A DNA stretch of 64,000 bases, taken from NCBI RefSeq assembly GCF_003334405.1, contig NZ_QOWM01000005.1; one strand, given 5' to 3'. The stretch is from Escherichia coli. Its GTDB lineage: Bacteria > Pseudomonadota > Gammaproteobacteria > Enterobacterales > Enterobacteriaceae. Shown here one piece after another: positions 10,091 through 25,262 of this stretch (position 1 is the stretch's first letter; each line of letters starts with the position of its first letter). The notes under the pieces were generated by a model. It made no database searches. It was given only the letters and a program-made list of their open reading frames with translations, and had not been told where the DNA came from. Made by a program: the position numbers and the translations under genes.

Positions 10091-10624
10091 ATGCGCCTGC
10101 TCCCTCTCGTTGCCGCAGCGACAGCTGCATTTCTGGTCGTTGCCTGCAGTTCTCCTACGCCGCCGCGTGGCGTGACCGTAGTAAATAATTTCGACGCCAA
10201 ACGTTATCTCGGTACCTGGTATGAGATTGCCCGTTTTGATCACCGCTTTGAACGTGGACTGGAAAAAGTCACCGCAACATACAGCCTGCGTGATGACGGC
10301 GGCCTGAATGTCATTAATAAAGGCTATAACCCTGACAGAGGAATGTGGCAGCAGAGTGAAGGGAAAGCGTACTTTACCGGCGCACCAACTCGCGCTGCGC
10401 TGAAAGTGTCATTCTTTGGTCCTTTCTATGGCGGTTATAACGTTATTGCACTCGATCGGGAATACCGCCATGCGCTGGTTTGCGGCCCGGACCGCGACTA
10501 CCTGTGGATACTCTCCCGCACGCCAACCATTTCTGACGAAGTGAAACAGGAGATGCTGGCAGTCGCGACCCGGGAAGGGTTTGATGTCAGTAAATTTATT
10601 TGGGTACAGCAGCCTGGTAGTTAG
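10091..10624 (+). CDS. blc: Outer-membrane lipocalin Blc (177 aa)
   Basis: ORF track; lipobox VVAC; lipocalin motif GTWYEIAR. Confidence 0.93.
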
Positions 10625-10938
10625 TGAGTGCTGAGTTTCAGACCAATAATCCCCAATACGATTAACGCCAGACTCGCCAGGCGCATCGGGTTAGCGGACT
10701 CACCGAGCAGCACAATGCCGGTTATGGCCGCGCCGACTGCGCCAATACCCGTCCACACGGCATAAGCCGTCCCTACTGGTAACGATTTCATCGCCCAGGC
10801 AAGTAGCGCCATACTGACAATCATCGCCGTCACAGTAATAACACTCGGCGTCAAACGACTAAAGCCGTGGGTATATTTCAGGCCAACGGCCCATACCACT
10901 TCCAGCAGACCAGCAATAACTAAGATAATCCAGGACAT
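10621..10938 (-). CDS. gdx: SMR-family guanidinium exporter Gdx (SugE), 105 aa
   Basis: ORF 10621..11088; start at [10 protein letters not shown] (ATG 10938); four-helix SMR sequence. Confidence 0.93.
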
Positions 10939-10954
10939 ATCAGGCTCCGGAGAA

Positions 10955-11002
10955 TTGGGGCCGTCCCCGGTGAAAAGAGGCGTTTGCAGGTCGTCCTGCA
11001 AA
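10955..11002 (-). ncRNA. Guanidine-II (mini-ykkC) riboswitch in the gdx 5' leader: two hairpins with ACGR loops (gcagg-ACGA-cctgc and ccgggg-ACGG-cccc)
   Basis: Both hairpins read directly on the minus strand, ~19 nt upstream of the gdx ATG; gene context (SMR exporter) fits. Confidence 0.7.
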
Positions 11003-11113
11003 GCTGATGGTTGAACGGATATTTTGCCAGGTGGCAGGGGAATTTCAACTATTACCTTTGTGACTATCGCAGAAAAAACAAACGGCACGACACAGCTGTC
11101 GTACCGTTATTGC

Positions 11114-25186: not shown

Positions 25187-25262
25187 GCCCGGATAGCTCA
25201 GTCGGTAGAGCAGGGGATTGAAAATCCCCGTGTCCTTGGTTCGATTCCGAGTCCGGGCACCA
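25187..25262 (+). tRNA. pheU: tRNA-Phe (anticodon GAA), 76 nt with encoded CCA
   Basis: gcccggatagctcagtcggtagagcaggggattgaaaatccccgtgtccttggttcgattccgagtccgggcacca read directly. Confidence 0.97.

Follow-up and report, generated by a model that had tools for sequence, protein, structure and literature searches.

The 5′ leader of gdx (sugE) in the 64,000-nt stretch of Escherichia coli DNA analysed here (the window) carries the guanidine-II riboswitch that has already been described for gdx/sugE of E. coli K-12, and nothing new is claimed about the identity of the element. It is held with high confidence that this known riboswitch operates by guanidinium-dependent docking of its two hairpins, P1 and P2, which frees the Shine-Dalgarno sequence (SD) and the AUG of gdx, an OFF state that overlaps P2 being the most likely ligand-free fold. 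Family membership, gene context, conservation and covariation were derived in the present analysis; ligand binding, the kissing loop and the effect of deleting P2 were taken from published work. The sole point of scientific interest is the expression platform, for which folding energies and a survey of 37 leaders are set against the linker anti-SD of the biophysical studies, and what is left as novel concerns only which segment serves as anti-SD, together with natural deletion alleles of the leader. The layout of the locus, in window coordinates and with the basis of each assignment in brackets, is as follows:

11021-11048, minus strand: candidate sigma-70 promoter of gdx with -35 TTGAAA, a 16-nt spacer and a TG-extended -10 CAAAAT (consensus scan only)
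10983-11002, minus strand: P1 hairpin, 8 bp, UUUGCAGG/CCUGCAAA, ACGA tetraloop at 10994-10991 (sequence, Rfam alignment, relatives)
10969-10982, minus strand: linker L1/2, CGCCUCUUUUCACC, 14 nt, pyrimidine-rich (sequence; linker described in PMC9300104)
10957-10968, minus strand: P2 hairpin, 4 bp, GGGG/CCCC, ACGG tetraloop at 10964-10961 (sequence, Rfam alignment, stem covariation)
10949-10956, minus strand: spacer AAUUCUCC, 8 nt, from P2 to the SD (sequence)
10945-10948, minus strand: SD motif GGAG, 6 nt 5′ of the ATG (sequence)
10621-10938, minus strand: gdx (sugE) coding sequence, 105 aa, SMR-family guanidinium exporter, the regulated gene (NCBIfam NF008512, RefSeq sugE and PDB match)

The aptamer proper extends from 11002 to 10956 on the minus strand, and the remaining positions 10955-10939 comprise the spacer, the GGAG motif, named as SD in the legend of Fig. 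1 of PMC13064478, and the 6 nt to the start codon. The P1 core GGACGACC and the P2 core GGACGGCC are both ACGR loops closed by G-C pairs (GGACGRCC). Two minus-strand hairpins with ACGA and ACGG tetraloops had been described in the gdx leader by a first-pass annotation made by eye from the letters, and both strings that it quoted are present, gcaggACGAcctgc at 10999-10986 and ccggggACGGcccc at 10970-10957. The observation is confirmed once the stem lengths are slightly adjusted: P1 is a hairpin as described and is longer than quoted (8 bp, 11002-10983), and in the P2 string the GGGG/CCCC stem holds, whereas the cc ahead of it lies opposite aa and does not pair, leaving only 4 bp at 10968-10957. 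The end of P2 does precede the ATG, at a distance of 18 nt rather than the approximately 19 nt given, and lies 8 nt before GGAG, next to the ribosome binding site. The 14-nt linker agrees with the inter-hairpin linker of the guanidine-II class, which is variable and mostly 13 nt or longer (PMC5486947).

The assignment to the guanidine-II (mini-ykkC) class, which the same annotation had proposed together with a covariance-model search, is supported by that search, by related leaders with compensatory stem changes and by the published layout. The whole window was scanned on both strands with 4,227 Rfam families at curated thresholds, and RF01068 (Guanidine-II) matched 11002-10956 (minus strand), scoring 50.4 bits (gathering threshold 32) and covering the model in full, from position 1 to position 48 (E = 5.2e-7 for the whole-window scan and 2.4e-9 for a local scan of the leader). 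In the alignment both GGACGRCC cores are present and all stem pairs are standard except for the outermost position of P2. A 47-nt riboswitch had been recognised correctly from the letters, without tools. The window has only two copies of the octamer GGACGRCC, and both lie in the gdx leader, on the same strand and 30 nt apart; since about 2.9 copies are expected by chance over both strands of 64 kb, the count by itself is unremarkable and the weight lies on the co-location and on the covariance model. At a permissive threshold the other Rfam families gave only sub-threshold chance matches in the leader (RT-17, sucC, PK-IAV), and the models of guanidine-I, -III and -IV had no match in the gdx leader in either the window or the local scan. 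These three classes share ligand and gene classes with guanidine-II (Gdx/SugE exporters, guanidine carboxylases) and are likewise all ON switches (PMC12186494); they differ in having unrelated folds, guanidine-I (ykkC) and -IV acting via transcription termination and guanidine-III via a pseudoknot. The folding z-score of the whole leader is weak (-1.65), as is to be expected for a small bistable element, and was given no weight as evidence.

The gene context agrees with this class. From the ATG at 10938-10936 an open frame of 105 codons runs to 10621 on the minus strand, and its product matches the NCBIfam SugE equivalog NF008512 with 193.5 bits (cutoff 126) over residues 1-104, which bears out the earlier naming of the downstream gene as an SMR guanidinium exporter. 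The protein has the features of the SugE subfamily, namely a length of about 105 aa with four helices, the equivalog match and the membrane-embedded Glu of TM1, which is kept as E13 in the translation. Its best matches in the PDB are 6wk5/6wk8 (E = 1.5e-32, 115 bits), compared with 44 bits for EmrE; the annotation of these entries reads only SMR-family multidrug resistance protein, and we take them to be entries of Gdx from Clostridiales (Gdx-Clo). The product name given by RefSeq/PGAP is 'quaternary ammonium compound efflux SMR transporter SugE' and not guanidinium exporter Gdx. At the gdx locus no difference from E. coli K-12 MG1655 was found over the 1,201 bases compared (100% identity), the neighbourhood being ampC-blc-gdx/sugE-ecnB-ecnA-efp in the RefSeq annotation of MG1655. 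In that record no riboswitch or regulatory feature is annotated across the leader (window 10939-11002); RefSeq being silent here, its annotation neither confirms nor refutes the riboswitch.

In the list of open reading frames a GTG-started frame of 155 aa (10621-11088, minus strand) crosses the whole riboswitch leader into gdx. This GTG was rejected as a start, since the long frame is an artefact that arises where the reading frame ahead of gdx happens to be open; the true start is the ATG at 10938, which is preceded by an SD and agrees with the RefSeq coding sequence and with the full-length family match. The candidate promoter sits between the terminator of ecnB (11108-11081 plus a T-run) and P1, and transcription from it would be predicted to start about 10 nt 5′ of P1.

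Relatives were collected from a scan with one genome per species, in which 586 Gdx relatives were found, and the best 80 of the 586 loci were fetched. Two ACGR-capped hairpins lie within 200 nt upstream of the gene in 46 of these 80 loci, and of 20 loci submitted to an Rfam scan, 19 had an RF01068 match above threshold that ended just before the gene. The loop-to-loop distance varies among the relatives between 29 and 56 nt, and in the enterobacterial leaders the interval between P2 and the start codon stays within 13-28 nt throughout. In distant Proteobacteria the same architecture is found 5′ of gdx, with stems that change in sequence and remain paired.

For the analysis of covariation 44 related leaders were aligned with the two invariant loops as the only anchors and with fixed flanks, so that the alignment was not fitted to the stems. 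Loops and closing pairs are invariant among these leaders. Standard pairs occupy 89.3% of the stem cells of the loop-anchored alignment compared with 68.6% in shuffles, both sides have changed at 11 of the 14 pairs, and none of 500 shuffles attained the observed value on any of five measures. In P1 compensatory changes were found in relatives at seven of the eight pairs. When the 3′ partners were slid by 1-3 columns the covariation score fell from 0.575 to 0.06-0.19. Among the inner pairs, G·U and U·G together occur 32 times and A·C and C·A together three times; G·U being far above A·C, the RNA that folds is the gdx sense strand, which excludes both a palindrome in the DNA and a structure on the antisense strand.

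About 34 of the 80 loci are without an ACGR hairpin pair upstream (for example L024, L026, L027, L029, L032, L041, L043, L044 and L048); these may use riboswitches of the guanidine-I, -III or -IV classes, or none. The NDM-1 resistance plasmid p8538-NDM-1 of Providencia vermicola (locus L006, 1138-1515) carries gdx of the Citrobacter type together with an intact guanidine-II riboswitch, whose hairpins are identical to those of the chromosomal locus of C. werkmanii (L005). Three plasmid places in E. coli were noted alongside it, and this plasmid-borne gdx agrees with published reports of riboswitch-gdx units on plasmids.

The element is known from published work on the E. coli sugE/gdx guanidine-II RNA, and the leader analysed here is that element, every tested feature being shared. 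The published layout, which was compared by description and not base by base with the construct sequences, matches the leader in having P1 with ACGA, the native linker, P2 with ACGG and the GGAG SD inside the 64 bp that precede the ATG. In reviews E. coli is named as one of the bacteria with a guanidine-II riboswitch, and the class is presented as switching translation ON (PMC12186494, PMC5558903). The E. coli sugE aptamer was studied by NMR and SAXS, and for the 49-mer a KD of about 130 uM for guanidinium was obtained by NMR (PMC9300104), and a ligand-dependent intrastrand kissing loop was seen by smFRET in a 47-mer (PMC9094411); the aptamer constructs of these biophysical studies end before the SD. 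The smFRET paper also refers to 5NDI, in which the homodimer formed by E. coli P1 was solved by crystallography (PMC9094411). The same loop-loop dimer architecture is expected as in the crystal structures of P1 and P2 stem-loops of the Gloeobacter violaceus and Pseudomonas aeruginosa representatives (PMC5486947, PMC5558903). Those RNAs mostly have ACGA in both hairpins, whereas P2 of E. coli has ACGG, and this wild-type loop binds guanidinium poorly by NMR (PMC9300104). The E. coli P1 is moreover prone to form P1-P1′ dimers (PMC9300104), and weak binding by ACGG together with these dimers makes the cis P1-P2 mechanism less clean for the E. coli representative. In vivo, the 20-bp deletion ZX-1 (-30 to -11) renders gdx constitutive (PMC13064478); in window coordinates it corresponds to 10968-10949, by which P2 and the spacer are lost and GGAG is kept. 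In the same study guanidinium in the medium enhanced resistance to Cs+, which its authors credit to riboswitch-mediated induction of gdx (PMC13064478).

The general mechanism, docking of the P1 and P2 loops in the presence of guanidinium and the resulting exposure of the SD, is taken from the literature. Each of the two ACGR tetraloops can bind one guanidinium ion, and the loops of P1 and P2 dock via C-G kissing pairs. Without ligand P1 would be stable and the short P2 would not. In this OFF state the loop and the C-rich 3′ strand of P2 would pair with the GGAG SD and the 5′ strand of P2 with the start-codon region, and initiation would be blocked. Guanidinium-dependent docking would lock the P2 hairpin and leave SD and AUG in weak local structure only; ribosomes could then load, and the Gdx exporter produced would pump guanidinium out. 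The ligand-free alternative was predicted as follows:

10930-10969, minus strand: predicted OFF-state alternative helix, GGCCCC with GGAGCC and GGGAC with GUCCU of the AUG and codon 2 (MFE and ensemble prediction only)

Energies were calculated with nearest-neighbour parameters for the leader through codon 8. They amount to -10.3 kcal/mol for P1, -7.1 kcal/mol for P2 and -14.2 kcal/mol for the alternative helix of P2 with SD and AUG, which is the MFE structure; this helix and P2 are mutually exclusive. The predicted pairing probabilities without ligand are 0.99 for P1 and a marginal 0.10 for P2. With P1 and P2 enforced the SD is still partly paired in a hairpin of -5.6 kcal/mol with codons 2-3, and because of this remainder the thermodynamics shows a weaker occlusion and not a clean release.

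Among 37 distinct leaders the mean predicted probability of formation is 0.83 for P1 and 0.36 for P2, and the main predicted partner of the SD is the 3′ strand of P2 in 19 leaders; the mean predicted SD pairing is 0.33 with this strand and 0.10 with the linker, values that are to be read with the caveat that C-rich P2 strands and G-rich SDs pair in silico whatever the function. Enforcing P1 and P2 raised the accessibility of the SD from 0.24 to 0.32 across the 37 leaders (Wilcoxon p = 0.008), a gain too modest for the thermodynamics by itself to decide how the switch works. For G. violaceus a stem-loop that overlaps P2, occludes the ribosome binding site and excludes the folded aptamer has been proposed (PMC5486947), and the same is predicted here for E. 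coli. In E. coli and about half of the Gdx-linked representatives the anti-SD may be supplied by P2 itself, its loop and 3′ strand pairing as GGCCCC:GGAGCC and its 5′ strand prolonging the helix into the start codon, a prediction from modelling that is put forward with moderate confidence. If it holds, P2 would serve as the expression platform besides providing one half of the sensor.

The folding thereby departs from the E. coli papers, in which a pyrimidine-rich anti-SD in L1/2 (CCUCUUUU) is drawn as pairing with GGAG in the OFF state, docking of P1 and P2 withdrawing the linker. The NMR and FRET papers show this linker arrangement for E. coli, and it has also been proposed for P. aeruginosa (PMC9300104, PMC9094411, PMC5558903), where the anti-SD is said to include the 5′ end of P1 as well as the linker. 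Among the enterobacterial leaders the linker is indeed pyrimidine-rich and partly conserved, and it is the main predicted partner of the SD in 5 of the 37 relatives (for example L013 and L052). For E. coli itself, however, only one register was found, CUCU:GGAG, with four pairs of which one is G·U, and its energy is +0.1 kcal/mol if P2 is absent and -1.6 kcal/mol if the pairing encloses P2, that is, at most -1.6 against -14.2 kcal/mol for the helix that overlaps P2. One of these four pairs is broken by the substitution C10979G in strains O157 and CFT073, and over the 37 leaders the mean pairing of the SD with the linker is, as given above, below that with the P2 3′ strand. The linker anti-SD is considered unlikely on these grounds, and for E. 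coli we infer from the modelled energies that the OFF state overlapping P2 would be the favoured one.

Control at the level of the transcript and not of translation initiation, by termination at P1 and a U-rich tract, by Rho-dependent termination or by access of RNase, is considered distinctly improbable. P1 followed by CGCCUCUUUU was scored as terminator-like by a consensus scan, but the U-run is only 4 nt long, begins 6 nt past the P1 stem and is not conserved among relatives (for example CGCATCTCAC in L002 and CGCATCACTC in L010), and P1 was rejected as a terminator because of this short, offset and unconserved U-tract. ZX-1 came to light because RNA-seq showed a raised level of gdx RNA (PMC13064478), and part of the control may therefore act on mRNA abundance; guanidine-III is likewise reported to affect RNA stability as well as translation (PMC12186494). 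Yet effects on RNA can arise from lost translation, ZX-1 keeps P1 and the U-tract while gdx is de-repressed, and the distance that the enterobacterial leaders keep between P2 and the start codon is that expected for control at the ribosome binding site. That the hairpins are chance GC-rich inverted repeats, or a palindromic operator bound by a protein at the DNA level, with no RNA function, has a negligible probability and is effectively refuted, in spite of the shortness of the hairpins, the roughly three GGACGRCC octamers expected per window and a leader without annotated feature in RefSeq, by the covariance-model E value of 5e-7, by the recurrence of the architecture 5′ of gdx in distant Proteobacteria with covarying stems, by a strand-specific excess of G·U that is incompatible with a DNA palindrome or a fold of the antisense strand, and by the binding data published for the E. 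coli sugE/gdx guanidine-II RNA.

Within E. coli, the 1.2-kb segment with the gdx leader occurs in all 5,426 complete genomes searched, and the 91-nt leader was found at an identity of at least 95% in 5,412 of them. Differences from K-12 somewhere within the 91 nt are present in 2,260 of 5,413 genomes. C10979G in the linker is shared by both non-K-12 strains that were inspected (O157 AR-0429 and CFT073), and CFT073 additionally has C10952T in the spacer; the variant positions sampled are thus confined to linker and spacer, the hairpins being unchanged.

The urinary isolate strain 167 (NZ_CM132950.1; locus L084, 2501-2565) has naturally lost about 29 nt of the gdx leader, corresponding to window positions 10981-10953. 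The junction of this deletion reads ...CCTGCAAAC/CTCCGGAGCC..., where the stroke marks the joint; the linker and all of P2 are gone, and P1, the SD and gdx are kept, so that it resembles the laboratory deletion ZX-1 by which gdx was made constitutive. The predicted structure around the SD amounts to -4.0 kcal/mol after the ZX-1 deletion and to -5.6 kcal/mol after that of strain 167, and the little SD structure that is left in both fits de-repression. If the OFF state does overlap P2, natural leader deletions such as that of strain 167 (29 nt) would be constitutive gdx alleles. A further 13 of the 5,426 genomes had no match to the 91-nt leader.

Elsewhere in the window, a full-length match to the enterobacterial sRNA STnc630 (55602-55767, minus strand, 181.8 bits) and a tRNA-Phe (GAA) gene (25187-25262, plus strand) are ordinary K-12 features, and at 61433-61809 (plus strand) four tandem copies of Rfam naRNA4, a nucleoid-associated RNA of the REP/BIME type, were detected about 100 nt apart with 95-111 bits.
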